14,524 nt of DNA, taken from a virus (Duplodnaviria > Heunggongvirae > Uroviricota > Caudoviricetes). The DNA is taken from positions 1 through 14,524 of the IMG/VR virus record IMGVR_UViG_2718218128_000007, one strand, 5' to 3'. Shown one piece after another: positions 1-14,524 of this stretch. Under the pieces are notes generated by a model. It did no database searches and had not been told where the DNA came from. It was given only the letters and a program-made list of their open reading frames with translations. The position numbers and the translations under genes are program-made. The stretch's first letter is position 1; each line of letters starts with the position of its first letter.

Positions 1-669
1 TTACGATGCCATCCCCTTTTTGGTTAAAGGTTTCGCAGGATTCCCAAACACAGTCACTCCAGCTGGCACACTTTTTGTAACGACGGCTCCCATTCCTATA
101 ACTGCCCCATCCCCAATGATAATTGGTCTTTTAGGAGAACCCTGTTTTATAACTGCACCCGCCCCAACATATACGTGATCACCAATAACAACGCTTCCAT
201 TACATTTAACACCCGGAGCGAAGGTAACATAGTCCCCTATAATGCAATCATGGGCAACATATGAATATATATTCGCATGGAAAAACTTACCTATTTTTGC
301 ATCCGCTGTGACACACGTAAAAGGGCATAGGATGGCACTATCATGAATATCACTAGATTCATATTGAATACTGTGATGTCCTTTAATGGTAAAGGGGACA
401 GCACCAGCCGCCATTAACATTGAGGCTATCCTTTCTCTAACTTTACTATCACCAATAGCGACATTAAAGAACTTGTTATCATAATCAGATTCACAGAACT
501 CCTGTGGAGATAGAACATCAATTCCAGAAATTTGCTTACTTTCAGAATTCTCAACAATAAATACTAATTTATAACTATCATGAAACGGTAGTTCATCGAA
601 CATGAACTGAACTAAAGGTGCAACTTCACGACCAAAACCACCTGCACCAACAATCCCATAGATATCCAT
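1..669 (-). CDS. NeuD/PglD-family hexapeptide-repeat (left-handed beta-helix) sugar O-acyltransferase; likely accessory/moron gene
   Basis: ORF 1..690 (-). N-terminal Rossmann-like segment MDIYGIVGAGGFGREV is followed by repeated hexapeptide-like [LIV]-G-x-x-x-x units (IGDYVTFAPGVKCNGSVVIGDHVYVGAGAVI ... IGDGAVIGMGAVV). The track start at 690 is a TTG; I prefer the in-frame ATG at 669, which has a GAGGG Shine-Dalgarno a few nt upstream. Stop codon is at 1..3, so the gene is complete. Confidence 0.7.
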   Translation of the reverse strand: MDIYGIVGAGGFGREVAPLVQFMFDELPFHDSYKLVFIVENSESKQISGIDVLSPQEFCESDYDNKFFNVAIGDSKVRERIASMLMAAGAVPFTIKGHHSIQYESSDIHDSAILCPFTCVTADAKIGKFFHANIYSYVAHDCIIGDYVTFAPGVKCNGSVVIGDHVYVGAGAVIKQGSPKRPIIIGDGAVIGMGAVVTKSVPAGVTVFGNPAKPLTKKGMAS

Positions 670-904
670 AACACCCTCAGACATTATCAATTTTAGATAT
701 AGTATGTCCTTGGCGTAGATTTCTCAAGAGTGTAAACAAGGGGGGAGACTTATGCTGGAAACTTGGGAAAAAGCGACTGTTATTTTGTTCAGTAAACACC
801 ATGTAAACTCACTGCCAACTGGCAACCATTCAATACTCACACCATCGAACGGACTTCAACTGACCGCGACCTGTTTCTTCATTCTCGGATAGCGGCATTC
901 ATCT

Positions 905-1492
905 TTATGCTGGTTTTGCTGGCCAAGTGATGTCAGGTGCTTTCGATGTATCGACCTCCTGAAGTGCTTTAATGTACCAAATCCACGCAATCAGACTCGT
1001 CTTATCTTCGTCGCTAATGATTCCCAATTGCAGTTCAGTTGTCCAGAAACTGATCTTTTCCTTAGCTTTTACCAATAGAATAGCTTTTTGCTTATCAGCC
1101 ACTTCAACATCAGCTGCATACTTAGCATTTGGGTCTGATACCCACTTTTTCCCATCCCATTTCTGGAACGGATCAGAAGGAGCAATATTGGTATAGCCAT
1201 TATTAATAGGACCAATATAGTCGATAGTATGAGGCATACCGTCAGTAGTTGAATAAACTGTCTTACCTCGATGGTCTTCTTTCAAGACCCATCCTCCATT
1301 TTCGAATACAGCAACCTTTCCTGTTAGTTCATTACCCGGATCAATATCGGTAGAATTACCCGGCATACTGACGCCAATATTAATATATTCGTCTGACCAT
1401 CCTATATATTCAAAAGTTACTATATCGTAGTAATAGCAGCGGATTTCACCCGGTTCCGTTGCCAGTCCATTTTCATCAAAAACAGGTTTCAT
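905..1492 (-). CDS. tfa: phage tail fiber assembly protein (Tfa chaperone)
   Basis: 195-aa ORF with blocks typical of enterobacterial Tfa proteins (EDHRGKTVY, QKWDGKKWV, C-terminal VDTSKAPDITWPAKPA). Its ATG overlaps the stop of the upstream tail fiber ORF (TAATG on the minus strand), implying translational coupling. Confidence 0.8.
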   Translation of the reverse strand: MKPVFDENGLATEPGEIRCYYYDIVTFEYIGWSDEYINIGVSMPGNSTDIDPGNELTGKVAVFENGGWVLKEDHRGKTVYSTTDGMPHTIDYIGPINNGYTNIAPSDPFQKWDGKKWVSDPNAKYAADVEVADKQKAILLVKAKEKISFWTTELQLGIISDEDKTSLIAWIWYIKALQEVDTSKAPDITWPAKPA

Positions 1493-2250
1493 TATTTAGC
1501 CCTTACTAAAAAGTTAAATGTGATATTGCGGGGACGTGTTTCGTTGCCTCCAGGATTTTGGAATGCAGGTAAAGCTCCCCCTATCGGCTGACTGATTCCG
1601 TTGGTATATAAAGGAGCTGCATTCGATATTGTACCAAACACTACATTGCTACCATTTCCGCTTGTCCCTAAAAATTTATGCTCATGCATTTTGAAGTCAT
1701 CTGCTTGTGCAGAAAGTAAGGTTCGCCCTCTATCCACCCCGCGCCCATCATCCCAGATACGAATAAAATCACCCCGTGCGTCAGGTAATGCTAGCGCCGG
1801 AAACACTTTCGCCAGCACAGGGTAATCAGTGGCAGAGAATTTCGCGCCGTTGAACTTCAAAAACACCATACTGGACCAACTGTCGATTACAGTATTTGGC
1901 ATTGCGGCGGACGGCCAGAAGAACGGAACGCCAATAGCTGGAGCACCTTCTCCCAAACCAAGATTTTCGAGAGCCGTTTTCACCGTGCCATCCGATTTGA
2001 TATCACCAAACGGATTCTTGCGGCTTAACAGCAGAGCACGAAGCGCGGTAAGCAACTGGTCGTTTCGCCCCTTCTCCAGGCTGGCACCGGATGCCTCCAC
2101 CACGCTGCAGAGTTCTTCCTGCAACATATCAAAGTAGTCATCATCCAGATCGGTGGCAGGTGTGCCAGTCTGGGGGTTACCACGGGTAAAACCGTTCTTA
2201 CCCGCGCCGAACTTATCCTTCTGCGCGGTTTTCGTGTCTATACGATGCAT
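1492..2250 (-). CDS. phage tail fiber protein (distal receptor-binding type), possibly a truncated remnant
   Basis: 252-aa ORF immediately upstream of and coupled to tfa; Gly/Asn/Ser-rich C-terminal half ending [11 protein letters not shown], as in Stf-like fibers. It is short for a lambdoid side tail fiber and is preceded by an in-frame TAA that separates it from the terminase-like ORF. Confidence 0.55.
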
Positions 2251-2253
2251 GGA

Positions 2254-2874
2254 TTACTCCGGATATTTAAAAATTACGTAGGTATGCGACGGGCAGAGTT
2301 TGTTAAGCACACATTCGACAACGGTGTCGCCCCAGATACGCAGCGCGGAATCACAGGGATCGCCACATGTCATCCAGGTGGTGTTTGTGGCGGCTGGCAT
2401 GTTGACCTGCCAGTAATACCGCCATTCCGGCGCATTCACCGCGTCAGAACAGGCCGATGAGCAGGTGAACGTGCTTTTGTCGTATCGCGTGATGGTAGCC
2501 TCCTGTTCTTTTTTGGCGGTCAGCTCCGGATTTTTGACCATACCGCCCATTGCACCGGTGATGGTGTTGCCCTGTCTGGCAATATTTTTCACGGCACGTC
2601 GCCAGAACTCGTAGGCCACGCACCACCGCTCAAGCACCGCGAGGTCAGTCACGCACAGCAGGCCCTGACCGCAGAGTTCTTTGGTTGTCAGTTGCCACAT
2701 GATCGTAGCGAGAGGGAGATCTTCTTCAGCGAACCACTCCGGTGGCTCAACACCTTTGATGGGCGTAAAAACAGGTTCATCTTTGTTCAGGGCTCGCTTG
2801 CCGGGGTTTCCGGCCAGCGCCTTGCGCGCCGTTGGCTTGGGGCGACGCCCGGAACGCCCCGCCGTTCCAGCCAT
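2254..2874 (-). CDS. terminase small subunit, P27 family (N-terminal about 135 aa), with an atypical Cys/Trp-rich C-terminal tail; probable deletion remnant
   Basis: N-terminus [36 protein letters not shown] matches the conserved P27-family TerS start. The track start at 2883 is GTG; an ATG at 2874 is preceded by an AGGAG Shine-Dalgarno. The last about 70 aa ([40 protein letters not shown]...) do not resemble a TerS C-terminus. Confidence 0.55.
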
Positions 2875-2913
2875 ATGCGGCACTCCTGGTTAAATTTCAT
2901 TTTTCGCGGGTAT

Positions 2914-2972
2914 AAAAAAACGATGGGGCGGGCAGTCCTGAAGGCGTCAGGTCACAGGGATTTGACCCGCCC
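2914..2972 (-). other. GC-rich nested inverted repeat between HNH and TerS genes; candidate cos/packaging-site structure or intrinsic terminator
   Basis: GGGCGGG (2926..2932) pairs with CCCGCCC (2966..2972), enclosing an inner hairpin CCTGA-aggcg-TCAGG (2937..2951). On the minus strand the outer stem is followed after 5 nt by a T7 run (complement of A7 at 2914..2920). Confidence 0.3.
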
Positions 2973-2998
2973 TCCCCTCTGGCAGTGGAAACTGGTTC

Positions 2999-3349
2999 TT
3001 ACTTCAGCCGTTCACGGGCCGTCTTCGCCTTATGACACGGCCAGCACAGACTCTGCAGATTACAGTCGGCATCAGTGCCGCCATGCGCTTTAGGGATGAT
3101 GTGGTCAACGGTTTTCGCTTCACGCACCACACCGGCACGCAGACATAACTGACATAAACCTTTGTCACGTTTCAGCACACGCGCGCGGATAGCGTCCCAC
3201 TTCGAACCGTAGCCGCGCTGATGACGGGACTGGCCTGGCTTGTATTGCTTCCAGCCTTCGCTTTTGTGGCTTTCACAATAGCCTGACGAGTCAGTGGTGG
3301 TATGGCGGCAGCCGCGAACGCGGCAGGCTTTTGGGGTTCGTGGGGGCAT
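2999..3349 (-). CDS. HNH endonuclease (phage terminase-associated type)
   Basis: Cys-rich HNH signature CRVRGCRHTT...CESH ... VDHIIPKAHGGTDADCNLQSLCWPCHKAK. It sits directly upstream of TerS, the standard HNH-terS arrangement in cos-type phages. I prefer the ATG at 3349 (MPPRT..., GGAG Shine-Dalgarno) over the track start at 3418, because a terminator-like hairpin lies between the two. Confidence 0.75.
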   Translation of the reverse strand: MPPRTPKACRVRGCRHTTTDSSGYCESHKSEGWKQYKPGQSRHQRGYGSKWDAIRARVLKRDKGLCQLCLRAGVVREAKTVDHIIPKAHGGTDADCNLQSLCWPCHKAKTARERLK

Positions 3350-3360
3350 GCTGGCTCCAA

Positions 3361-3383
3361 TAAAAAGCCCCGCGACGCGAGGC
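3361..3383 (-). terminator. putative rho-independent terminator after the small membrane protein gene
   Basis: Minus-strand RNA GCCUCG-CGUCG-CGGGGC (6-bp stem including one G-U pair) followed by UUUUUAUU, about 30 nt after the stop at 3415. Confidence 0.4.
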
Positions 3384-3414
3384 TTAGACAGAAAAAACAC
3401 CGGATAAGATCTGG

Positions 3415-3618
3415 TCATTCTTCCTTTTTAATAATGACTTCTCGAGGGCGCAATTGTTGGATAGCACGACAAATACAATATGGAATAACTGCCCATGCTA
3501 CTCCCATTGCTGCACCTGCAGCCTGTTGTGGAGCACTCTGAGCACCGAAAACCCCGAGGATTCCTTCAATAAATCCAATAGCACTACACAAAAGACTGAT
3601 GACCCAGAGAATTTTCAT
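3415..3618 (-). CDS. small hydrophobic membrane protein (two predicted transmembrane segments), function unknown
   Basis: 67-aa ORF MKILWVISLLCSAIGFIEGILGVFGA...AMGVAWAVIPYCICRAI with a charged C-terminal tail. A strong AAGGAG Shine-Dalgarno lies about 9 nt upstream of the ATG, and the region is AT-rich. Confidence 0.45.
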   Translation of the reverse strand: MKILWVISLLCSAIGFIEGILGVFGAQSAPQQAAGAAMGVAWAVIPYCICRAIQQLRPREVIIKKEE

Positions 3619-3735
3619 AAACCTAAACTCCTTTTAAATAAACACTTTACTAGGATAATTCTCATAAAATGTTAGTAAAGTATTTTCAGGAAAATAGCGT
3701 ATCACTGCCTATTTTTGACACTGATGCTGGGATAA

Positions 3736-4110
3736 TTATTCCGGTCGCTGGAGTTGCTCATGATGATACAGAGCGAGAATCAGGTCATAAGACCCTTGCC
3801 TGTCTTTGTAACCAGTTTTATCAACCAATTCAGCTTTACTGATTCCGGGTAAATCAAGAATCAGATTCGCAACTTCAATTGCCCTTTGGTACAACTTACC
3901 GCCCTTTTTCTCCCCATGCAGTGGTTTTACATTCTTGAGGTAACCGCTATCCGCCAGGGCGAGAAATGTTGCCCTTGGGCATATCTTCTTTCTTGACGAT
4001 TCGCTTTCTGTAACCTCTGCGACAGCTGCATCCCATGCATCACGAGGAGGCATTGAGCTATCAGCAACCAAATGATAAGCGATTAAAGCGGCGCGCGCGT
4101 ATTGAGACAT
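3736..4110 (-). CDS. hypothetical protein (accessory gene downstream of Rz)
   Basis: ORF 3736..4161 (-). The track start is a GTG that overlaps the end of Rz; the in-frame ATG at 4110 (MSQYARAALIAYHL...) is more plausible. I recognise no family from the sequence. Confidence 0.4.
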   Translation of the reverse strand: MSQYARAALIAYHLVADSSMPPRDAWDAAVAEVTESESSRKKICPRATFLALADSGYLKNVKPLHGEKKGGKLYQRAIEVANLILDLPGISKAELVDKTGYKDRQGSYDLILALYHHEQLQRPE

Positions 4111-4148
4111 AATGCATCCATATACAAAAATCTCATGATAATACTTTT

Positions 4149-4592
4149 CTAATATGAACACTGTGATCTCACATACTCTTGCAGGCCATTCAATTGGTTA
4201 GTTATGGTTTCGATGCGCTCTCTGAGAACGAAATAATCTCGTTGAGCGGTGTCAGTAAGTCTGGGGCTGGAAGCATCATCCACGCCGGAGGCGGCGGTGG
4301 TTTTATGCATGTCCGGACAGACTGCTTTGACGTGCAGCCACTTACGACCAGCAGAAACATCAGCACGAAGACTTTCGATAGTCGCGTTAGCATCAGCAAG
4401 CTCCTTTGTATATCTGGCATCGAGTTCAGCTACATTACTTTGACGTTTCTGTATGTCAGCGATAATGGATGCGGCCTTATCGCGCTGCTTTTTGTAGGTG
4501 ATGGCGTTATCACGGTAATGATTAACCGCCCATGACAGGCAGACGATGATGCAGATAACCAGAACGGAGATAATCGCGGTGACTCTGCTCAT
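4149..4592 (-). CDS. Rz: Rz i-spanin (inner-membrane spanin), lambda-like
   Basis: 147 aa; N-terminus [34 protein letters not shown] is near-identical to lambda Rz as I recall it. Its start overlaps the R stop (ATGA), and it carries the embedded +1-frame Rz1. Confidence 0.9.
4202..4393 (-). CDS. Rz1: Rz1 o-spanin (outer-membrane lipoprotein) embedded out of frame within Rz
   Basis: ORF 4202..4420 (-) lies entirely inside Rz in another frame. It has a signal peptide plus lipobox ([20 protein letters not shown]) followed by TSKQSV...[10 protein letters not shown], matching the lambda Rz1 pattern. Start is placed at the ATG at 4393. Confidence 0.8.
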
Positions 4593-5065
4593 ACCTCAAT
4601 CTCTCTGACCGTTCCGCCTGCTTCTTTGAATTTTGCAATCAGGCTGTCAGTCTTATGCTCGAACTGACCATAACCAGCGCCAGGCAATGAGGCCCAGATA
4701 TTACTGCAACGGTCGATTGCCTGACGGATGTCACCGCGATCAATCATTAGTAAAGCGCCACGCTCCTTAATCTGCTGCAATGCAACAGCATCCTGGCTTT
4801 TAGGAGAGAAGTCTGTCAGCCCTAACTGCTTGCGGTAAGCATCCCACCAGCGTGAAAGAAGTTGATAACGGCCTGCGGCTGTTGATTTGAGTTTCGGGTT
4901 TAGCGTGACAAGTTTTCGAGGGTGATCGGAGTAATCAGTGAAGAGTTCGCCACCGACAATAACGTCATAACCGTGGTTACGTGTCGGTTGTCGCCCGTTA
5001 TCCGTTCCTTCTGACCAGGCCACCATATCAAGGAAAGCTTTACGCTGAGGATTTAGTACCTGCAT
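4589..5065 (-). CDS. R: endolysin R, lambda-type lytic transglycosylase
   Basis: 158 aa, [45 protein letters not shown]..., near-identical to lambda R as I recall it. AAGGAG Shine-Dalgarno upstream of the ATG. Confidence 0.9.
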
Positions 5066-5068
5066 AAA

Positions 5069-5404
5069 TTACTCCTTCGAGCTACCAAATTTGTTACCGA
5101 TTACTCGCATTGCAGCCCCACGAATAGCATCGACACCGATCAGCCCAACGCCGCCACCAATGGCAACAGAAAGAGATTTAGGCCATCCGACATACTCAAG
5201 AGCGGATGCAAAAGTCAGCGTCAGAGCACCACAGAGCAAAATCTCGAGCGTTTTTCGCTTCCAGCCACCACCACCGCCAAAATAGGCAATGCGCAAGCCA
5301 GCCATAACGATCGACATAATCACTGCGCCCAGCGGTGTGTCTCCACGCCACCAGCTCTGAAACAACTCCAGCCAGTCCGGCCAGGTATTTGGGTTATGAG
5401 GCAT
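5069..5404 (-). CDS. putative holin
   Basis: 111-aa ORF immediately upstream of R, with hydrophobic segments (GAVIMSIVMAGLRIAYF, LEILLCGALTLTFASAL, LSVAIGGGVGLIGV) and a GAGGTGAGAG Shine-Dalgarno. It does not resemble lambda S, so the call rests on position and hydropathy. Confidence 0.55.
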   Translation of the reverse strand: MPHNPNTWPDWLELFQSWWRGDTPLGAVIMSIVMAGLRIAYFGGGGGWKRKTLEILLCGALTLTFASALEYVGWPKSLSVAIGGGVGLIGVDAIRGAAMRVIGNKFGSSKE

Positions 5405-5545
5405 TTGTAGTTATCTCTCACCTCGCTGATACAGCAGGTGCAAATTGAGGAAACATCATGTTCCGCAAATCAGAAGCGGAAACGTCAAAGAAGCCGAGTC
5501 AAAGGATAACTGCGGGATAAACCAAGCCCAACGAACAACCAGGCC

Positions 5546-5578
5546 CAGAAACGACAAAACCCGCTCATCGGCGGGTTT
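5546..5578 (-). terminator. rho-independent terminator upstream of the holin (tR'-like position)
   Basis: Perfect 8-bp stem AAACCCGC (5557..5564) / GCGGGTTT (5571..5578) with a 6-nt loop; on the minus strand it is followed by UUUUGUCGUUUCU. It lies between the moron start and the holin start. Confidence 0.5.
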
Positions 5579-5670
5579 AAGCTGTGTGGCGAAGTAACCA
5601 CTCTTAACACATTACATGATAAAATGCGGACCGCGTTAGTAATATTTTTCTCATATATTGGGTTCACTAC

Positions 5671-6417
5671 ATGCGACATAATTTTTCTAAAGACACTATA
5701 AAAAAATTAGCAGAGCGGGCAGCATTCATTTGTTCAAACCCTTCATGCCCTAGATTGACCATTGGCCCATCAATTGATGGCAATAAATCAATCAAGACAG
5801 GAGTTGCTGCTCACATATGTGCAGCATCTCCTGATGGCCCACGCTATGACATGTCACAATCAGAAACAGAAAGGAAGTCAATTAACAATGGCATATGGCT
5901 GTGTGCTACTTGTTCTGTATTAATAGATAAGAATCAGGGGCTAGACTATCCGGCACCTGTATTAAGAAAATGGAAAAAAGATCATGAAAGCCTTATAAGC
6001 TCCTGTCTTGAAGGTTCGATTAATATTACCTTCGATGCTTTGAAATATATTCAACAGCATGATGAAAGAAATCTGGCAAAAAAGATTATAAATGAATTGG
6101 ATGATAAAGGGGCTTTGTTCGTAGAATATCATCTTGAAAACCCCTGTTTTGTTGCCGAATCACTCAAAGAGTTAAGAACATGTTTGACCTCTTTGCTTTC
6201 TCAAATCCCAGATGAATCACCTCTATTTATCGTTTGCAAGTCAATTCGAGAAGCATGCCGTTATTATATGAACAACACTTCTAAAGACGCAGGGATTAAA
6301 GAGTTAGAATTTTCGTTGGGAGCGGTCAGAAAAATCGTAGGTATCAACGTTAAAAGAATATCAGAAACCTACGGGGTTAAACCTAGCCCACAATTATCTA
6401 CCATAATGCCAGATTAA
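5671..6417 (+). CDS. AT-rich moron encoding a 248-aa protein with an N-terminal HNH-like (His-Me finger type) Cys/His motif and an uncharacterised C-terminal domain
   Basis: Long ORF on the strand opposite to all flanking genes. Motif: CSNPSCPRLT ... GVAAHICAASPDGPRY ... ERKSINNGIWLCATCSVLIDKN, i.e. CxxxxC ... AHI ... N ... CxxC, with Ser where the final His is usual. Sampled 60-nt stretches are roughly one-third GC, against roughly half or more in neighbouring genes. A terminator follows it. Confidence 0.65.
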   Translation: MRHNFSKDTIKKLAERAAFICSNPSCPRLTIGPSIDGNKSIKTGVAAHICAASPDGPRYDMSQSETERKSINNGIWLCATCSVLIDKNQGLDYPAPVLRKWKKDHESLISSCLEGSINITFDALKYIQQHDERNLAKKIINELDDKGALFVEYHLENPCFVAESLKELRTCLTSLLSQIPDESPLFIVCKSIREACRYYMNNTSKDAGIKELEFSLGAVRKIVGINVKRISETYGVKPSPQLSTIMPD

Positions 6418-6426
6418 ATCTGTTAC

Positions 6427-6469
6427 GCAGCAACAAAGTTAAACTCTATGTTGCTGCCTTAATTTTATT
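6427..6469 (+). terminator. rho-independent terminator of the moron gene
   Basis: Perfect 9-bp stem GCAGCAACA (6427..6435) / TGTTGCTGC (6449..6457) with a 13-nt loop, followed by CTTAATTTTATT on the plus strand. It sits between the moron stop (6417) and the convergent Q stop (6468). Confidence 0.55.
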
Positions 6470-6830
6470 ACTCCATTTCTAAACGAATATCCAGCATCGA
6501 GAGACAACCATCTATAAACCCTTCAGCCAACTGTATCTCTATACGTATCAATTTCTCATCTTTTTTGTATGCTTTTGCTATCTTCCTTTTCGAGATGCCA
6601 TACAGGTAATGAGCCACAATCAGAGAGTGCTCATACGGTTTTCTCTTCTTAAGAAGAGCAAGACAACCTTCAATAATTAATGCATCACTATCTGAACAAG
6701 CCTGACGTGTTTTGCTTGTATAGGGAAGAAGCCCTTTAAACCCAGCAGCTATAGGAGAATAGTCTACTCCAGAACTATCACTCGCCGCCCATGCTCCCCA
6801 ACGATCCAGAACCATCTGAATATCACGCAT
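6468..6830 (-). CDS. Q: late-gene antitermination protein Q (Phage_antitermQ type, as in phage 21 / DLP12-like elements)
   Basis: MRDIQMVLDRWGAWAA...IAAGFKGLL...ALIIEGCLALLKK...LAEGFIDGCLSMLDIRLEME matches my recollection of the small Q-type antiterminators. The track start at 6845 is TTG; the ATG at 6830 has a GGAGAAA Shine-Dalgarno. Operon position is upstream of the lysis genes. Confidence 0.75.
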   Translation of the reverse strand: MRDIQMVLDRWGAWAASDSSGVDYSPIAAGFKGLLPYTSKTRQACSDSDALIIEGCLALLKKRKPYEHSLIVAHYLYGISKRKIAKAYKKDEKLIRIEIQLAEGFIDGCLSMLDIRLEME

Positions 6831-6847
6831 CAACTTTCTCCACAAAA

Positions 6848-7171
6848 TCAGGCCAGCACACCAGTTGCCAGCGCACGATCGATAAAACGAAATATCAGCT
6901 CCAGTTGGGAGCCATACTTCTCTTCAAATGCCACGGTACCCTGGCGACGCGCCTTACGCGTTAACCAGCCTTCTGCTTCCAGCCGTGCGATAGCCGTTCT
7001 GACGGTACTCATCCCCGCGCCAATCTGACGGGCAATGGTTTCAATTGATGGCCAGCACACACCTTCGTCATTACTGAAATCAGCCAGGCGGGCCATAATT
7101 GCCACGCTGGATAATTTCATGCCTGACGCAGCGCAACCATCCCATACATAGCCGGTTAATTTAGTGCTCAT
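6848..7171 (-). CDS. winged-helix/HTH DNA-binding protein, possibly the N-terminal remnant of a replication-initiator-like protein
   Basis: 107 aa with an HTH-like segment LSSVAIMARLADFSNDEGVCWPSIETIARQIGAGMSTVRTAIARLEAEGWL. Its start overlaps the end of the upstream frameshifted gene and its stop abuts the Q start. Confidence 0.45.
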   Translation of the reverse strand: MSTKLTGYVWDGCAASGMKLSSVAIMARLADFSNDEGVCWPSIETIARQIGAGMSTVRTAIARLEAEGWLTRKARRQGTVAFEEKYGSQLELIFRFIDRALATGVLA

Positions 7172-7519
7172 GACCGACCTCTATTTCCCTGAATTTACGA
7201 CGAAACTGTTCGAGCGGGCTGAAGCACTCATGCTCATAGCCTTCACGGAGGTAGATAACCCGTTGTGTTTCCGGCTCCCAACGAATAACTCTGACGGGCA
7301 CTCCGTAGTGATCTTTGAACCAGCGGTTAACTTGTCGCAAAGGACTGTCTCCTTCTGCCGGTTGAAATCACCCACAGCCCACTCTGCAAAGCTGTGGGTT
7401 ACAATTTCCCTGTCACCTGGTACATTCACTGCATAGCAATATTCCACCTTCGCTTTTCCACCCGGTACAGGAAGCGCAATCAGTTGCGAGCGACGGTAGT
7501 GTGTTGTTAAACTGTTCAT
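7161..7519 (-). pseudogene. frameshifted gene of unknown function (two reading frames needed to span it)
   Basis: The frame from the ATG at 7519 gives [52 protein letters not shown]..., then degenerates into low-complexity sequence ending at 7181. A second minus-strand frame is open from 7367 to a TAA at 7161..7163 and reads as ordinary protein (...[61 protein letters not shown]). That second frame overlaps the HTH gene start by 11 nt in the usual coupled manner. This implies a single-base indel near 7330..7367. Confidence 0.4.
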
Positions 7520-8085
7520 GCGTTAGTTTCTCCACAACCAGAAGCAATCGACGCCACGACGCCCGGAGCTGCACACTCGCGGGCGTCATTACTTTCTGAA
7601 ATGCAAAAGATTTTGTAGACCAGTGCTGCATGCTCCTGCAGCTTCGAAATTGAGAGATACAGCTCGTCGTTAATTGCTGTCTTCTCATGCGGTTCCACTA
7701 CACCGTCTTCGATTGCTGAACGAATCTGTTTTGAATAACTGCCGATCTGTTCAATGACTTCCAGCAGACGCTGGTTAATATCGGCGTTGTCCACATCCTC
7801 GACGTCAGGAAGAGACACAAAGACGCCATTTGCAGACTGCGCCACAGCATCAGCAATGAAGTGAGTGCCACCAGCACGCTGTAAAACCATTGCCCATCCC
7901 AGCGGGAAAATCTGATCGCCATCTGCACGAAGGCGGTTGAATAAAGCGTTTTCTGTTACATCGAGCCAGTCAGCCGCTTCAGCGTAACCCCCCGGCAACG
8001 CCGCGATAGTTTTTCTGACAGCTTTCACGTACCACTCAGGCTGTTTTTCTATTTTCCAGTGATGCTTACCCACGATTAGCCTCAT
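7516..8085 (-). CDS. putative phage early regulatory protein (possibly CII/CP76-like); family assignment uncertain
   Basis: ORF 7516..8199 (-). The first 38 codons from the ATG at 8199 look non-coding (Arg/Ser/Phe-rich, over an AT-rich promoter-like region), so I prefer the ATG at 8085 ([25 protein letters not shown]...). Neither start has a clear Shine-Dalgarno. It heads the minus-strand early operon, divergent from the DUF551/AlpA pair. Confidence 0.35.
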
Positions 8086-8275
8086 CGTTCTGTGGTTAAA
8101 AATTGAAAGTGTTCTGCTAATCTTTCGGATAGATAATTGGCTGGCGTTCTCTCTGGTACACCTGGGGACAAAAAGAAACCGGAGAATGGCAGTGGACATT
8201 TCAGGTCGGGGACCTTGAAAACGTCAATATCACTCACTGGGCAGTAATGCCAAAAGCACCGGAGGCTGGAGCATA

Positions 8276-8896
8276 ATGACCACTTTTACCGACAAAGAAC
8301 TGATTAAAGAAATTAAAGAGCGTATCAGCAGCCTTGACGTGCGAGACGATATTGAGCGCCGTGCTTATGAAATTGCTCTGGCATCGCTGGAAGAGGATCC
8401 GGTGGCATGGCTGCATTCAGACAATGGCTTAGGTATTCCGGCAATAACGAGGAGTAAAAACATTGCTGACAGTTGGTTATCAAAGGGCTGGTATGTTCAG
8501 CCGCTATATATAGCCAAGCCAGTGCTGGTGGTGCCAGATGCTCGTCCGTCTTTAAATAATGGCATAGTCGGTTTTGATGAAGGCTGGAACGCCTGCCGCG
8601 CCACCATGCTTCATGGTGCCAAACCTGTAAGCCAGACTTACAAGTTGAACAAGCTATCGGGCAACTCTCCGGTAACTCCGGATGGTTGGATAAGCTGTAG
8701 TGAGCGAATGCCGAATGATAAACAGTATGTTTGGTGTTGGGGTAAGTCTTACGGCTGGACTGAGTACGATACCTTCGAAGGGTATTACGATTGGTCGAGA
8801 AACAAATGGTGGGCAGTTACTGACGATGGGGAAGAACCGGCATCGAAAGTAACCCACTGGATGCCGCTACCGGAGCCACCGCAGGAGGTGAAGTAA
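8276..8896 (+). CDS. DUF551-domain prophage protein
   Basis: C-terminal Trp-rich block DGWISCSERMPNDKQYVWCWGKSYGWTEYDTFEGYYDWSRNKWWAVTDDGEEPASKVTHWMPLPEPP is characteristic of DUF551. GGAGG Shine-Dalgarno upstream; stop overlaps the next gene's ATG (TAATG). Confidence 0.65.
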   Translation: MTTFTDKELIKEIKERISSLDVRDDIERRAYEIALASLEEDPVAWLHSDNGLGIPAITRSKNIADSWLSKGWYVQPLYIAKPVLVVPDARPSLNNGIVGFDEGWNACRATMLHGAKPVSQTYKLNKLSGNSPVTPDGWISCSERMPNDKQYVWCWGKSYGWTEYDTFEGYYDWSRNKWWAVTDDGEEPASKVTHWMPLPEPPQEVK

Positions 8897-9090
8897 TGAA
8901 CAACTTAATGACAACTAAACAAGTCGCCGACTTCTGTGGCGTTTCAGTATCGACCGTTCTTCGCTGGAACAGCGTAAACAGGAGAACTGGCCAGAAATAC
9001 AGGCCTGACTTTCCAGATCCTGATATTAAATCCTGCCCAAATAAATGGGCATCACGCAAGATATACAGGTTTGCTGGAGTTATTGAGTGA
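8896..9090 (+). CDS. AlpA/excisionase-like small HTH DNA-binding protein
   Basis: 64 aa; LMTTKQVADFCGVSVSTVLRWNSVNRR fits the Xis/AlpA-family HTH pattern (T-x-K-Q/E-V-A ... G-V-S ... T-V-x-R-W). GGAGGTG Shine-Dalgarno; translationally coupled to the DUF551 gene. Confidence 0.55.
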   Translation: MNNLMTTKQVADFCGVSVSTVLRWNSVNRRTGQKYRPDFPDPDIKSCPNKWASRKIYRFAGVIE

Positions 9091-9125
9091 TGGGTATTAG
9101 ATCATATCAGAACTAATACCCATCA
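9088..9125. repeat. 13-bp perfect inverted repeat (hairpin or protein-binding palindrome) at the boundary between the xis-like gene and the SIR2 cargo gene
   Basis: TGATGGGTATTAG (9088..9100) and CTAATACCCATCA (9113..9125) are exact reverse complements separated by 12 nt. No U-tract follows on either strand, so it is not a classical intrinsic terminator. Confidence 0.5.
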
Positions 9126-9292
9126 ATGACACAGAGCCAACTACCCACCCTGTGTCAGGGGCTAACTTTTAACACCATAATTCACCGCTAGATAAAAACT
9201 GTATTGCATTGCACGAGCGGCGCAGCATTATCAGTTAGAGTGTCTTTACCTTGTTAGGCTCCACAGTTCGCACTGTCCAACGCCTGTCACTT

Positions 9293-12200
9293 TCACACGC
9301 TGCGCCTTCGAGAATATTCATTTAATCGCTGATAACGAACATCTTGCTCCAGTTGTGGAGCAGCTTGAACAATTTGAAGCAAGCATTGCCCCAACTCTCG
9401 AGGCCCCCAGTGTTGGTCGGCAATCACGGCATTCAGCAGGGATAGAGCGTCCGCAGGATATCGGCTGCAAATATCTGATTTTAGCAAAAGGCGAACGTCG
9501 TAGCTAAGGTGTTCGAGCGGTTGCAGCCAGTCCTGCACCACTGCCAAAGCCGCCGGAAATTCACCTCGGGCAGCAATCACCATACGAGTCAACGATTCGG
9601 ATATGCGTGGGGTGGCCAAGTTGCGGGACTTTGGCCAAACCTGTTGCCAAAATGGCTGGACACGATTTTTCCAATACTCCTCGCGCTGATCGCCCGCACC
9701 TTCAAGTGCCTGGTATAACGCCTGCGCGGCTACCTCCAGACCTTCTTGTGGAAGAGCACTAATTGCCGTTCGGAACTCCTCCACGGTATATCCCTCGGTA
9801 GGGCCCAGAGCTGCATAAGTCAGGAAAGTAGCGAATTGCTGCCGGTGCTCGCCAAGATCAGAATAGTGATTGGCGCTCTCCAAAAAATCTGACTTGAAAG
9901 CTATCAGCAACGGTTCATACAGGCGTGGCGACCAGAGGAAGCCTTCCCACACAGCTTGTGCTTCGACGGGATTACTCCAAGCAAACAAGGGCAATAGATA
10001 CTGTTCGGTCCAAGGTCGATCTACGCGAAAAAATGCGATCAGCCGCGACCCCAGCAACACCCGACCATGGCGGAATAGCTCTATCTGTACATTACACAAT
10101 TTGGTGAAAAGTGTTTTCAATTCAACAGGAAGCAAATCATTGTCATTCGGGTTCTGTTTGAACCATAGGGTGATCAGTGATTGCGTGACATGCCCAATGG
10201 GATGATTGATCGCCGTAGAAACAGGATCATAGGTCTCAATTCCGTTTCGAATGGTGCTAGACTCTGGGCTTGTTTCTATCATCAGAACCCGACGACAAAG
10301 GGCCAGTAGAATCTCCTCGTGGCAGAGGATGGGCTTCGAAGCCTCCTCCATCCACCAAGTGACAGCGTGGGAAATCTCCTGAAGTACTGCGTCAGGCATG
10401 TCAAGCACCAACGGTGCGGCGTACCGCCACGAACGCAAAATCATCCCTGGTTCAGCCCAAGTCTGCAGAGCTTCACGCCACCGACCAACAGGCCACACAT
10501 CATCTTGTGATAGTTTACGTAACGCATACAGACTGTGAAAAAAGCGCGTACGGCAAACATCACTCCAAGTGTCCTCATAGAAAGGCAGTCTTTCTGGCAT
10601 AGGCTTTGCGAGCCATTGCACTAATTCCTGCCACTTACGGGGCGCAATGTCGACATCTATACTCTCCTCGAAGCCTGGATCACCGGTTCCGCTCATCCAG
10701 TGAGAGAATTCATCACGCTCGTTGGTTGCCAGTTGCCATTTTGGGTATGCTGTGGATATTTCCGTCAAACGTGTAGCCGCAGACTCTCCCAAAACAAGGC
10801 CCGCTCCCCTGAGCTTCGCTAGACACAACCAGACGGAATGAGCCACCAAATAATGCCACCTGTCTGCTTCCAAATTATCCTCGTACATCTCGCGCGGAGG
10901 CCCTGCCAAGATAGCAGTTTCCAGACGCTCTTGTGCAATTCCTGTCAGATGTCGTCCCTGCAAAACAAACAGTCTGAATACCTCTCGCCCAGTATCCGTG
11001 GCCCACAACCACCATGAACCGTCCTCTAACAACCAATTAACCCACCGCTCAGGTGGTATGCAGTTGTCTTGGCTTGCGGAAAACAGTGCCAGACGTTTGA
11101 AGGTGGGATATGGCAACTCAAACCAATTCTGAGCAATGCGCGTGGCCTGATCGCTGTCTTTGGCTCGAACGGCTAACCATGAATCCCGAAGTAATTCAAT
11201 CAGGCTCACCCAATCGCGGAACCCCCGGTTCTGCCAGTGCGGAGTGATGGACGGCAAATCCCAATGCGAGCGGTCGTGACGATCGTCGGACTCTCCCAAC
11301 TCCCGCAACAAGTCCAGTGCATCACGCAACAACTGCTGAAAATCTTCCAACAGGTATGGCAAGGACGATTTCCATGACTCGTCAGCAAGGTCGAACAGGG
11401 TTGAACGTACGTAATCAGCAGTCAGCACCAGCTCCCAATCCACCAATTGCTTGATTCGCAAGGGCTCATCAGTGCTGCTCGAATCGTCTTCACTATAGCG
11501 AAACGGCCGCCTCAACATAACCTTGGGAGAAAGCAACTCGCGTAACTCCAAACGCAATGTAGTCGTCAAGCCTTCATTCTTTAAGCGGTTTTGCCAACGA
11601 TACAAATCCAGGTTCTGCAATGGCGATTTCACACGACCACTAAGCAGAAGCCGCCATAAAGTAGACATAGGTGGACCAGGAATAGCCAGGGGGGAATGCA
11701 AGAGAATTTCATCTAACTCAGAAGTCTTACGCTCCCGCATCAGTGCTGCTAAGCGATCTAGTTCGCTCTCAATCAGAAACATCCAACGGTCGTGTATTTG
11801 TCCGCCGCGTTCAGCAATCCATATGATCAACCTAGGGTCGCCCAGATAACGAACTAGCCAACGGGCTATATGGGACATTACGTCATCCCATTTGCTAGCA
11901 CTGACACATCCAGAAACCAGCGACATCTGCGGGGCTAGCTCATAGGGCGCAGGACGCTGAACCAGACTGAATCGGAGTTTCGGGTCAATTTCGACATGCG
12001 GAGATACACAAAAGCGTGGCAGATCGCTGTATTTAAATCGTTCGTCCGAGAAAGCTTTCAATAACCAATCCAGCGGCGGTGCAGGATTGAGTTCCGCAAA
12101 ACATTTTGCTGGTAAACCTGACTTATCAGATAAGGCCCACATCATCCGACCAACGAAATCGTCCTGCCGAGTGCTATCCTGCGGGCGGGCCAGAGCATGT

Positions 12201-13120
12201 TTGACGACAATGGCTTCTTTGCCTTGTATACCATCGCGATAAATATTTGCCCAAGCACGCAATGTATGGTGCATCGCTGAATGATCATTGGAGTCCGCCG
12301 GTACGGTGTAAAGGATGGGGGTGACCCCCTTGGCCTCCCACTCGATAGATTTCCGGTGCTCCTGCCCCGGCTCACATTCTCCTAGTGCCCATACTTGCGG
12401 CGTGACTTCACCGAGCCTCCGATCTGCTGCCAGTGCGTCCATCATATAGCGTAGCACCGGGTCGTTGATGCTGTAGCCCACGAAGCAGACCACGTAGTTA
12501 CGGAACAAGTCACTTACAAAACGGGCAGCCCAGCGTTCCGTGAGATAGGCTAAGCCAAAGTCTCCACTAGTGACAACCAGACGATTCAGAGCAGTATCGT
12601 CTGTCTTTTCCGGTAACAACCCATGCAGGTAGACTATTCCGTCCCAGCGACTATTTTTCGGAATTGGCAGCATCGGCGCTACATAAGCCTGAAACGCTTG
12701 GGCCGTGCGTTTAGCTGCCACATGAAATAAGCGGTCAAAGTTGGTAGTAACTAACCGAAGGGCACCATCGCGACTACGCGCCAAACGCAACAGCGCCATC
12801 TGAGTATCAGTTGCGCCTCTATAGTGAAGTTTTGGCTTAAGGGCTTGTTCCAGCGCGCGACGGACGGCTATACGCTGTCCCGGTAGGCGCCGTTCCAACA
12901 AATCCAATGTGGCGTCGAACTGACCGCGCTTGAAGGCCTCACACTCAATTTCTGAAAGTGTTGTTCCGTTCAACTGGTAAATCCGCTTTACCAATCCCTT
13001 GAAACCTGGCAAACCAGCAGGGTAGGAAATGCCTGCCCCGCAGAAGAACACCACGCGGCCTTCCTCGTGCGCCTGCAAAAGTTCATCCGGAATATCAGGG
13101 CCGTTGGTGATAAATTGCAT
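9293..13120 (-). CDS. large single-gene SIR2-domain protein (defence-associated sirtuin-like): N-terminal SIR2 NADase-type domain plus about 1000-aa Trp-rich helical C-terminal region; candidate anti-phage/abortive-infection effector
   Basis: 1275-aa uninterrupted ORF with a strong Shine-Dalgarno (AGGAGGAAAAGGA) before the ATG at 13120. N-terminal motifs of the prokaryotic SIR2 family: VVFFCGAGISYPAGLPGF (NAD-binding GAGIS-type), LVTTNFDRLF (Asn 127), IVYLHGLL (His 165, 38 residues after the Asn) and CFVGYSINDP. No Walker A/P-loop is visible. Located between the integrase and the xis-like gene. Confidence 0.8.
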   Translation of the reverse strand: MQFITNGPDIPDELLQAHEEGRVVFFCGAGISYPAGLPGFKGLVKRIYQLNGTTLSEIECEAFKRGQFDATLDLLERRLPGQRIAVRRALEQALKPKLHYRGATDTQMALLRLARSRDGALRLVTTNFDRLFHVAAKRTAQAFQAYVAPMLPIPKNSRWDGIVYLHGLLPEKTDDTALNRLVVTSGDFGLAYLTERWAARFVSDLFRNYVVCFVGYSINDPVLRYMMDALAADRRLGEVTPQVWALGECEPGQEHRKSIEWEAKGVTPILYTVPADSNDHSAMHHTLRAWANIYRDGIQGKEAIVVKHALARPQDSTRQDDFVGRMMWALSDKSGLPAKCFAELNPAPPLDWLLKAFSDERFKYSDLPRFCVSPHVEIDPKLRFSLVQRPAPYELAPQMSLVSGCVSASKWDDVMSHIARWLVRYLGDPRLIIWIAERGGQIHDRWMFLIESELDRLAALMRERKTSELDEILLHSPLAIPGPPMSTLWRLLLSGRVKSPLQNLDLYRWQNRLKNEGLTTTLRLELRELLSPKVMLRRPFRYSEDDSSSTDEPLRIKQLVDWELVLTADYVRSTLFDLADESWKSSLPYLLEDFQQLLRDALDLLRELGESDDRHDRSHWDLPSITPHWQNRGFRDWVSLIELLRDSWLAVRAKDSDQATRIAQNWFELPYPTFKRLALFSASQDNCIPPERWVNWLLEDGSWWLWATDTGREVFRLFVLQGRHLTGIAQERLETAILAGPPREMYEDNLEADRWHYLVAHSVWLCLAKLRGAGLVLGESAATRLTEISTAYPKWQLATNERDEFSHWMSGTGDPGFEESIDVDIAPRKWQELVQWLAKPMPERLPFYEDTWSDVCRTRFFHSLYALRKLSQDDVWPVGRWREALQTWAEPGMILRSWRYAAPLVLDMPDAVLQEISHAVTWWMEEASKPILCHEEILLALCRRVLMIETSPESSTIRNGIETYDPVSTAINHPIGHVTQSLITLWFKQNPNDNDLLPVELKTLFTKLCNVQIELFRHGRVLLGSRLIAFFRVDRPWTEQYLLPLFAWSNPVEAQAVWEGFLWSPRLYEPLLIAFKSDFLESANHYSDLGEHRQQFATFLTYAALGPTEGYTVEEFRTAISALPQEGLEVAAQALYQALEGAGDQREEYWKNRVQPFWQQVWPKSRNLATPRISESLTRMVIAARGEFPAALAVVQDWLQPLEHLSYDVRLLLKSDICSRYPADALSLLNAVIADQHWGPRELGQCLLQIVQAAPQLEQDVRYQRLNEYSRRRSV

Positions 13121-13306
13121 TCCTTTTCCTCCTATCCAATGTGGATATTCATTCGAGCAAATTAGGGGACAATGGGGCTACAGATTATTAGACCGACTAT
13201 GCAAACACTGCTTCCTTGCAAGCTACCCTGATCTAGCCAAATCACAATGTCCGCTCTCCTATCAAAGCAAACGGCTAGATTTGATTGTATTATGGCTACT
13301 CAAGGA

Positions 13307-14524
13307 TCAGTTAGAGTCTGAGCAAGTAATTATCGATTCAATCCTCTCCCACCATGCCAAGTAAGCTTTACGCTGTTCTTCTAGATAATCGCTCTTATCA
13401 TAAACTTGCCATACCCCTGGCAGCTTATGACCAAGCATGATTTCTGCGATATGAGGCGCAGTAAGATCAGAAAAATTTGTTCGTGCTGTCCGTCTCAAGT
13501 CATGAAGAGACCAATGAGGGAATTGATACCCAAAACGCCGCCATGCGTATTGCATTAAATTGTAAGGTAGCGACTGCAAGGATGTCCGACCAACTGGTTC
13601 CCTGCTTCCTTCCTTAGTAAAAAGCATATCGGAACCGTTGTTCATAGAGATAACGTATTTTATAAGCTCTTCAACCGGTTCAATAATGGGCCGCTTTAGC
13701 GGTTCGTCTGTTATATCCCCTGTCTTATGTCGTTCTGGTGGTACAGTCCATATTTTATTAATGAAATCAAAATCGTCCACCTTGGCAGTAATTAGCTCTG
13801 AACTACGGCAACCAAAATGCAGCAATAGTTTAATGAAGGCCCGGTATTTAGGAACCATTCGAGAACCATCGATCGCAGCATAAAGGATTTTAATTTCATC
13901 ATGTGTCAGAAACCGTTTCTTCTGACCTTTACGGATATCCATATCTTTACCCGTGATATCCGACAGCGGGCGAGTTTCAATGAGCTTTCTCTTATACGCC
14001 CAGACATGGGCCTGCTTTGCGTTAATTAGCAATCGGTCTGCTATTGCTGGAGTCTTAGTGCTAAGAGGCTCCAGGACTTCTAACCAATCATGCAATGTAG
14101 CTGCATCGTGAGGGATATTCCCGATTTTAGAGAACAGGTGCAGCTCAAACGAGCGGAGTATCTGTTCAGAACCTTTTTTATTTTTTACACAATATGCTTC
14201 ATACCAAGCACGGATCACAGATTCTACCGTCATGGCTTCAGTAGCTTTACGTTTTTCTGCCAGCTTGACCAATCGTGGATTGCGGTTTGACTCGAGTTCA
14301 CCACGAAGACGGATAACTTCTTCTCTGGCCTCTTTTAGTCCAGTTGACGGGTAAGTTCCGATATCAAGACGCTCACCTTTCCCCGCCCACTGATAACGAT
14401 ATTGGAACACTACGCGACCTTTCGGTGATACTCTAACAGACAGACCATCACGATCGGATTTAACCAAAACCTTATCACGTTCCTTTCCAACGACTGAACG
14501 CAACCACGCATCAGACAGCGCCAT
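13307..14524 (-). CDS. int: tyrosine site-specific integrase (P4-like, with arm-type N-terminal domain)
   Basis: 405-aa ORF whose ATG is at the window edge (14522..14524). The N-terminus (MALSDAWLRSV...GLSVRVSPKGRVVFQYRYQWAGKGERLDIGTYP...LKEAREE) resembles P4-type integrase arm-binding domains. C-terminal catalytic-region motifs: HDLRRTARTNF and LGHKLPGVWQVYDKSDY (candidate tyrosine nucleophile). Confidence 0.85.
   Translation of the reverse strand: MALSDAWLRSVVGKERDKVLVKSDRDGLSVRVSPKGRVVFQYRYQWAGKGERLDIGTYPSTGLKEAREEVIRLRGELESNRNPRLVKLAEKRKATEAMTVESVIRAWYEAYCVKNKKGSEQILRSFELHLFSKIGNIPHDAATLHDWLEVLEPLSTKTPAIADRLLINAKQAHVWAYKRKLIETRPLSDITGKDMDIRKGQKKRFLTHDEIKILYAAIDGSRMVPKYRAFIKLLLHFGCRSSELITAKVDDFDFINKIWTVPPERHKTGDITDEPLKRPIIEPVEELIKYVISMNNGSDMLFTKEGSREPVGRTSLQSLPYNLMQYAWRRFGYQFPHWSLHDLRRTARTNFSDLTAPHIAEIMLGHKLPGVWQVYDKSDYLEEQRKAYLAWWERIESIITCSDSN

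Follow-up and report, generated by a model that had tools for sequence, protein, structure and literature searches.

An integration module with a Dsr1 cargo

We analysed a 14,524-nt stretch of Caudoviricetes DNA (positions 1 to 14,524 of IMG/VR record IMGVR_UViG_2718218128_000007; hereafter the window, meaning the whole stretch), whose last part, positions 8896-14524, is the integration/excision module of a lambdoid Escherichia coli-type prophage related to cdtI, Ayreon, 2H10 and some Shiga toxin (Stx1a/Stx2c) phages. The module comprises a putative excisionase gene (xis, plus strand), the defence gene dsr1 (minus strand) and a P4-type integrase gene (int, minus strand), arranged as an initial annotation of the same DNA had described them: int and dsr1 are transcribed in the same direction and both converge on xis. 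The higher-GC character that the same annotation had ascribed to the intervening SIR2 gene is likewise apparent, with a G+C content (GC) of 0.519 for dsr1 versus 0.443 for int and 0.441 for xis, the two spacers lying at 0.43-0.45 and the rest of the window at 0.47.

The conserved right flank of the module is a 405-amino-acid (aa) P4-type tyrosine integrase (13307-14524) with Arm-DNA-bind_3, Phage_int_M and Phage_integrase domains. Its start codon is the last position of the window, so that attL falls outside the analysed DNA; at the related E. coli locus L001 the int open reading frame (ORF) encodes 407 aa, owing to a 6-nt indel near the stop codon. The conserved left flank, xis (8896-9090), encodes 64 aa that match PHROG 1553, 'excisionase', over the full length (E = 7.7e-36), and the product has the attributes of the excisionase family, being a small, putatively helix-turn-helix (HTH)/winged-helix protein encoded beside an integrase and recognized by an excisionase profile. 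The Pfam models HTH_17, HTH_23 and MerR all remain below threshold on this ORF (22.6 bits for HTH_17, cut-off 27), and a sequence search found no solved structure related to Xis. The ORF is called excisionase in the records of phages cdtI and 2H10; PGAP leaves it unannotated in the E. coli RefSeq genomes examined (L001, 7071-7468; L121, 5776-6218).

Between these flanks, dsr1 (9293-13120) encodes the 1275-aa defence-associated sirtuin 1. The protein matches the NCBIfam equivalog NF041818 over residues 1-1271 with 2050.9 bits (cut-off 1400) and the PADLOC Dsr1 model over all of its 1275 positions, and Pfam SIR2_2 is found at residues 123-269 (1.5e-22). It thus has what defines the family, namely a SIR2 domain at the N terminus of a single chain of about 1250 aa and a score above the equivalog cut-off, and with a length identical to that of the PADLOC model it does not differ materially from other Dsr1 proteins: it is an ordinary member. 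At the E. coli loci of 96% identity, RefSeq calls the gene Dsr1. In the literature the protein is described as a SIR2 NADase whose depletion of NAD+ aborts infection, and by family membership the window protein would act in the same way. The name reportedly stems from Gao et al. 2020, and the protein is said to have been studied by Garb et al. 2022. Together with 300 bp of upstream DNA, dsr1 from ECOR17 protected MG1655 against a T4 mutant, and T4 nrdC.5 counters the system (Srikant et al., bioRxiv 10.1101/2022.04.14.488369).

Variable cargo between conserved int and xis genes

Scanning IMG/VR with the integrase yielded 125 relatives, the best 80 of which were kept for a survey of the DNA between int and xis. 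In 79 of these 80, int and xis converge on one occupied slot, with xis downstream of int on the opposite strand at a distance of 1083-4233 bp; the exception (L043), which has no xis, is a deletion that also truncates dsr1. The intervals of the 79 relatives and the window fall into 15 clusters that have no segment of at least 200 nt in common, and every slot examined holds one cassette, consisting of a single gene or a small (two-gene) operon. The same int and xis flanks recur, without dsr1, in cdtI, Ayreon, 2H10 (Glaedevirus), PhiR63_1 and a set of Stx1a/Stx2c phages.

Three of the cargo types are known defence genes: Dsr1 (18 members including the window), Borvo (BovA; seven members, PADLOC/NCBIfam score 2.3e-241) and a defence-type dGTPase (five members, 3.5e-105). 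A Septu-like PDC-M01A/B pair (1.6e-247 and 4.8e-111) and PDC-S59 (2.7e-73), each seen once, are defence candidates with similarly strong scores, and weaker nuclease matches mark a DUF4365 nuclease (three members) and an 870-aa HNH and double-stranded RNA-binding (dsrm) protein (two members). A short interval with a FlxA-like ORF (three members) is not a defence cargo. The remaining seven types are proteins of 239 aa (12 members), 377 aa (10), 417 aa (five), 183 aa (four), 338 aa (four), 272 aa (four) and 517 aa (one), the 338-aa and 517-aa proteins with predicted membrane segments, for which Pfam, NCBIfam and PADLOC give no match and PHROGs returns only 'unknown function'. Encoded at loci L054, L078, L057, L045, L075, L087 and L082, these seven slot proteins are candidates for new defence genes. 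Nine of the 15 types are oriented with int and six with xis, and the GC of all types other than Dsr1 is low (0.31-0.43).

Among the isolated phages, the 710-aa BovA protein occupies the slot in both cdtI and Ayreon (PADLOC, 2.3e-241), the 239-aa protein that of 2H10 and the 377-aa protein that of PhiR63_1. One IMG/VR copy of BovA (L050) is split into ORFs of 279 and 433 aa (80-919 and 967-2268) that align to opposite ends of the 720-position model, the cdtI protein being unsplit at 710 aa; the split may represent a frameshifted copy or a sequencing error.

To look for empty sites, we ran a joined-flank query, which would bridge gaps of up to ~985 nt, against 5426 complete E. coli genomes. Although 1104 genomes match, none does so across the junction, and no empty or sub-1-kb int-xis site was found in the collection.

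The interval thus has variable content at a fixed position between conserved genes, across 15 clusters and 79 IMG/VR loci as well as cdtI, Ayreon, 2H10, PhiR63_1 and the Stx phages, and this content is rich in known or predicted anti-phage systems (Dsr1, BovA, dGTPase, PDC-M01A/B and PDC-S59). Judged from these comparisons, the int-xis interval is supported as a defence hotspot that is variable and always occupied in this lineage. The initial annotation had proposed such a hotspot and suggested aligning the interval with related prophages, with the same gene at this position throughout as the outcome that would speak against the idea; the alignment instead reveals 15 unrelated cargo types between int and xis, and the proposal is borne out.

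Slot boundaries and cargo exchange

The edges of the slot show in the identity profiles, with an abrupt drop at the xis stop. Across cargo types, mean pairwise identity is 0.9-0.97 in xis and 0.86-1.0 in the last 500 nt of int. It drops to 0.59-0.71 for about 80 nt after the xis stop (to ~9168) before reaching a background below 0.33, and to 0.42-0.58 for about 60 nt after the int stop before reaching background. Compared directly with relatives that carry other cargo, the window is 86-100% identical through the last 30 nt of xis; from the stop codon onward, identity over 30 nt is 53-66%. The cargo-specific DNA (9169-13249), without homology to the other cargo types, comprises dsr1, the untranslated DNA 3' of it and some of the intergenic DNA upstream. 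It is followed on the int side by a second semi-conserved zone (13250-13306, minus strand) with a weak hairpin at 13249-13272 on the minus strand, a degraded copy of the family hairpin GTCCGCTTTGAGC...AAGCGGAC.

The same Xis protein occurs with four cargo types (Dsr1, PDC-M01, the 517-aa and the 377-aa protein), and the last few int codons vary with the cargo. Cargo would be swapped by homologous recombination inside the near-identical int and xis sequences, and the ~80 nt after xis and ~60 nt after int would represent long-diverged alleles moving together with their cargo. Homologous recombination within int and xis is the most likely exchange route on these profiles; since flank homology explains the exchange, site-specific recombination is not needed for it. 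As a separate observation, the int-dsr1 spacer and the last int codons (window 13121-13306) are far more diverged from L001 than the genes on either side, in E. coli Dsr1 loci that are otherwise 96% identical.

A structured zone downstream of xis

The semi-conserved zone after xis (9088-9168) is present with every cargo type, in cargo-linked variants, and contains two hairpins in the window. Hairpin A (9088-9125) is the perfect 13-bp palindrome TGATGGGTATTAG-N12-CTAATACCCATCA, with a 12-nt spacer and a left arm that opens with the TGA stop codon of xis. Hairpin B (9127-9157), TGACACAG / CTGTGTCA, is stronger as minus-strand RNA (11 pairs including G-U; family consensus GGCACAGAGC...GCTCTGTGCC) and overlaps a small alternative hairpin, CCCTG-TGT-CAGGG (9148-9160), which is followed by GCTAACTTTT. 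Hairpin A is the longest short-range inverted repeat of the window, 13-bp arms appearing in 1 of 100 dinucleotide shuffles, and folds as RNA with -20.8 kcal/mol on the plus and -21.7 kcal/mol on the minus strand (z-scores -5.7 and -6.2). The initial annotation was correct in describing a perfect 13-bp inverted repeat without a U-tract. Its placement of the repeat exactly at the cargo boundary holds for the break in high identity, which falls at the xis stop within the left arm; it does not hold for the end of homology between cargo types, which is wholly gone only ~45 nt past the right edge of the palindrome.

With other cargo types, the homologous zone (consensus TAATGTGTATTAGCTCAGATGTGAGCTGACACATCTATGGCACAGAGC...GCTCTGTGCC) has a shorter, imperfect hairpin A and a hairpin B of 9-10 bp, the latter overlapping a third hairpin, GTCYRCTCT...AGAGYRGAC. 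In the window version the internal loop of hairpin A is filled, and the outer stem reads ATGGGT/ACCCAT where the consensus has ATGTGT/ACACAT. Dsr1 is also linked to another, diverged variant of the zone (L026, L027 and E. coli EBJ001; ~78% identity), which has a 10+4-bp stem and a different loop; relative to it, the window lineage has gained two pairs, one by a TAA-to-TGA change of the xis stop codon. The zone folds with mean z-scores across cargo types of -2.9 (plus) and -3.5 (minus), as compared with -0.5 and -0.2 for cargo-internal control segments. It beats shuffles in most cargo types on both strands, the minus-strand RNA is the more stable in 14 of 15, and A-C mismatches outnumber G-U among its pairs in the plus sense. 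The palindrome is the Dsr1-linked, perfected form of hairpin A, the first of the hairpin pair present after the xis stop in every family member.

The distribution of the palindrome agrees with its cargo linkage. Exact arms occur in 17 IMG/VR contigs with dsr1 adjacent in all 17, and the 80-nt zone is found, as a single copy, in 73 of the 5426 E. coli genomes, with coverage of at least 80% in 71, the same number as carry int-dsr1-xis. The expectation that the palindrome itself would be conserved at the boundary consequently fails, the exact form standing only beside Dsr1 and the other cargo types carrying diverged, imperfect repeats. Its interpretation as a recombination or insertion scar, including a target-site duplication, is not supported either: it lies in backbone-derived sequence, and no meaningful direct repeats flank the cargo. 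Nor is it part of the dsr1 cassette. Fifteen Dsr1 homologues of other taxa have no flanks in common with the window, and because these homologues (48-78% identity) share no flanks, the palindrome did not arrive with dsr1. A dispersed repeat of the repetitive extragenic palindrome (REP) or miniature inverted-repeat transposable element (MITE) kind was rejected on its occurrence at one place per genome in the 73 E. coli genomes and as one copy in the window.

Hairpin A also falls outside the definition of a canonical intrinsic terminator, a G+C-rich stem followed by a U-tract. The sole terminator-like match in the zone is the small hairpin at 9148-9160 with its tail GCTAACTTTT, and such matches number seven in the sequence versus 6.7 expected in shuffles.

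Inverted repeats bracketing the slot

In the family consensus, the ~45 nt after hairpin A and the ~45 nt after the int stop form imperfect inverted repeats (31 of 45 positions identical), with a local score of 25 versus 13.7 +/- 2.1 for shuffled sequences, 3 of 2000 of which reach 25, and 15 for the direct orientation. At the family level, each repeat holds a GTCCGCTYTG...AGCGGAC hairpin; the copies in the window (~9126-9170 and ~13250-13300) are degraded to chance level. The repeats may have arisen by duplication of a terminator module or may represent the two halves of a bidirectional terminator present in an ancestor. Integrase-mediated recombination at the hairpins was considered and rejected, the att core of the relatives (GGGTGAGAAATAAT) being unlike them, as was inversion of the cargo between the repeats, no cargo having been found in both orientations.

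Weighing the account and its alternatives

We therefore favour a single account in which a lambdoid int/xis module contains an always-occupied, swappable defence slot, here holding Dsr1, whose cargo is exchanged through flank homology and whose palindrome is a hairpin of the Dsr1 lineage, and we assign it a probability of roughly 0.8. Several observations weigh against it or against parts of it. Only about half of the cargo types back the label of defence hotspot, seven being without defence annotation; exchange by homologous recombination is deduced from identity profiles only; and no clear sigma-70 promoter for dsr1 is seen in the 186-bp int-dsr1 spacer. As regards the hairpins, no T-run follows hairpin A on either strand and only 5 of its 13 stem pairs are G-C, Rfam has no match at gathering score in the whole window and only chance-level small nucleolar RNA matches around the palindrome, the RNAalifold consensus of the zone is weak (-1.29 kcal/mol), and in hairpins A, B and C covariation, by pair count, is no higher than in shuffle controls. 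The zone is kept even by the six of 15 cargo types that are co-directional with xis, and the 71 palindrome-bearing genomes, which probably derive from one module, lend no independent support.

Since the six xis-codirectional types retain it, the zone belongs to the backbone and is not the cargo's own 3' terminator. A conserved RNA structure with covariation was rejected on the RNAalifold and pair-count results, so that our claim is limited to inverted-repeat potential, and a known RNA family was rejected for want of an Rfam match.

Of the roles considered, the most likely is one at the RNA level, and the bidirectional transcription stop suggested by the initial annotation is still the best guess. 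The hairpin pair would serve as a 3'-end element or insulator between the xis transcript and the convergent int/cargo transcripts, through termination, pausing, 3'-end protection or, as at lambda sib, processing by RNase III. We put forward tentatively, at somewhat less than even odds, that such a pair brings about the termination, protection or processing of the xis transcript and screens it from the convergent int/cargo transcript.

The same palindrome could act as DNA, as an operator for a dimeric protein (for instance Xis, a repressor or a host factor) regulating xis or the cargo, and its perfect, fairly A+T-rich 13-bp arms around a 12-bp spacer, the lack of a terminator-like U-tract and its location at the 3' end of an HTH gene would all suit such a role. 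Yet the arms differ between cargo types while Xis stays identical, so that a conserved protein would lose its site. The window holds no second copy of the half-site, the slot has no regulator gene co-varying with the arms, and the neighbouring hairpin B and indeed the entire zone are likewise structured, all of which makes an operator unlikely.

Alternatively, the palindrome might be functionless, a chance or neutral elaboration of decaying intergenic DNA that hitch-hikes with one successful Dsr1 module. Arms of 13 bp do appear in ~1% of shuffled windows, the covariation statistics are non-significant, and the carriers all have the same cargo and are 96-99% identical, which deprives their conservation of independent weight. 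We nevertheless hold neutrality to be improbable: the diverged Dsr1-linked variant keeps its 10+4-bp stem around another loop, the window lineage has gained two base pairs, one of them through the change of stop codon, and the zone, unlike the control segments, is structured in most cargo types.

Site-specific exchange by the adjacent tyrosine recombinase, with the slot-flanking hairpins as recombination sites of a single-cassette platform that dispenses with homologous recombination, would explain the ~45-nt inverted repeats at both flanks, each with a hairpin shaped like a recombinase core site, the occurrence of cargo types in either orientation and the presence of exactly one cassette every time. 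It is very doubtful nonetheless, as neither hairpin resembles the att core, identity decays gradually within the hairpins with its sharp break at the xis stop, the flanking zones are cargo-linked as expected of crossovers in int and xis, no single cargo occurs in both orientations, and both repeat copies have decayed to chance level in the window. For a dedicated, integron-like cassette-exchange site, in which the ~45-bp repeats and the xis-proximal palindrome would be the recombination or breakage sites for site-specific single-cassette swaps between related prophages, we see hardly any chance.

Origin of dsr1 and the host prophage

Dsr1 proteins of Nitrosomonas, Oxalobacteraceae, Nitrospira and Pseudomonas are 57-78% identical to the window protein, which fits the higher GC of dsr1 and suggests that the dsr1 cargo of the E. 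coli prophages came from a higher-GC proteobacterial source. The nearest relatives outside E. coli (L106-L120) are in Nitrosomonas (78%), Oxalobacteraceae (75%), Pseudomonas schmalbachii (73%) and Nitrospira (72%), and the genes across these non-E. coli loci have a GC of 0.45-0.62.

The region is 96% identical to prophages adjoining yjjG in 71 of the 5426 complete E. coli genomes, and the att core GGGTGAGAAATAAT of these relatives lies ~230 bp upstream of int, beside yjjG. Just 5' of xis, a gene with a Pfam DUF551 match (8276-8896, plus strand; 3.6e-17) forms part of a context that varies among relatives, identity between cargo types being only ~0.5 in the region 5' of xis. Farther upstream, the appearance of the window suggests a defective prophage. 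Positions 1-8276 hold genes for Q, holin, Rz, DUF6979, HNH and the small terminase and then, directly, a tail-fibre assembly gene (905-1492). In comparison with E. coli L001, ~3.2 kb are gone at ~8135, a segment that holds cro and cI (ymfT/ymfK) through yfdR, which is why a YmfL/CII-like gene (7516-8199, minus strand) abuts the DUF551 gene.

A 248-aa ORF (5671-6417, plus strand; GC 0.36-0.39) lies, on the opposite strand, between the genes for the Q antiterminator (6468-6845) and the holin (5069-5404), the classic position of a lambdoid moron. It has no Pfam or NCBIfam match, and its N-terminal 130 residues match PADLOC PDC-M68A (7.5e-27) and HNH endonuclease effectors of the cyclic-oligonucleotide-based anti-phage signalling system (CBASS) type, making it a second candidate defence gene of the window.

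Significance and comparison with known systems

In xis and the 3' end of int, the locus offers two short, near-invariant anchors around one always-occupied slot, and a match to one or both of the anchors is present in about a fifth of complete E. coli genomes. Since about half of the cargo types are without Pfam, NCBIfam or PADLOC annotation, the slot is a cheap and well-defined hunting place for anti-phage genes, like the P2 and P4 hotspots. The candidate defence genes are the main value of the locus, the palindrome by itself being of minor interest. A search of the literature, incomplete in its coverage, found no description of the int-xis slot.

Among known arrangements, that of the Stx2 phage phi24B is a precedent for the gene order: there, an inverted integrase converges on a validated xis, and int expression in the lysogen does not depend on CI (Fogg et al. 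2010, PMC3064807). As in phi24B, the P4-type integrase of the window is inverted relative to lambda and converges on a small xis, which closes the early-left operon. The two integrases are 32% identical (E = 5e-60); the match between the Xis proteins is marginal (25%, E = 8e-4). In phi24B, however, int and xis overlap by 17 nt without cargo, whereas ~4.2 kb separate them in the window. The description of the cargo as splitting int from xis is accordingly reasonable in evolutionary terms, the homologous phi24B module having the two genes abutting. The slot also shows how a phage can site cargo expressed during lysogeny behind an integrase gene, which in the homologous module of phi24B is not repressed by CI.

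The hairpins after xis recall lambda sib/tI and hairpin-type bidirectional terminators, with stable hairpins directly 3' of a recombination gene, where the early-left operon ends and convergent units meet. Unlike those, the window hairpin has an A+T-rich stem and no U-tract, and the likeness is one of possible working and not of membership. With integrons (intI, attI and attC) the slot shares a tyrosine recombinase beside exchangeable cassettes with imperfect-palindrome borders; unlike integrons, it has a P4-type phage integrase with Arm-DNA-bind_3 where an integron platform has an IntI-type integrase, always one cassette where the latter has arrays, and an att core unrelated to the flanking hairpins, and no attC-type RYYYAAC/GTTRRRY boxes were seen on reading the junction.

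Defence hotspots have been described at two loci in P2, between psu and int in P4, and adjacent to the integrase in Vibrio K139-like and Bacillus prophages (Rousset et al. 2022, PMC9122126), and in E. coli prophages too (Vassallo et al.). Like the P2, P4, Vibrio and Bacillus hotspots, the slot lies at a fixed, integrase-adjacent position, differs in its system from relative to relative, mixes known and unknown genes and accepts them in either orientation. Unlike them, it resides in a lambdoid, cdtI/2H10-like phage, between convergent int and xis genes, carries either a single gene or an operon of two, and has structured, semi-conserved zones on both sides. The locus adds to the established prophage and satellite defence hotspots, not surprising in principle and of practical value for finding defence genes.

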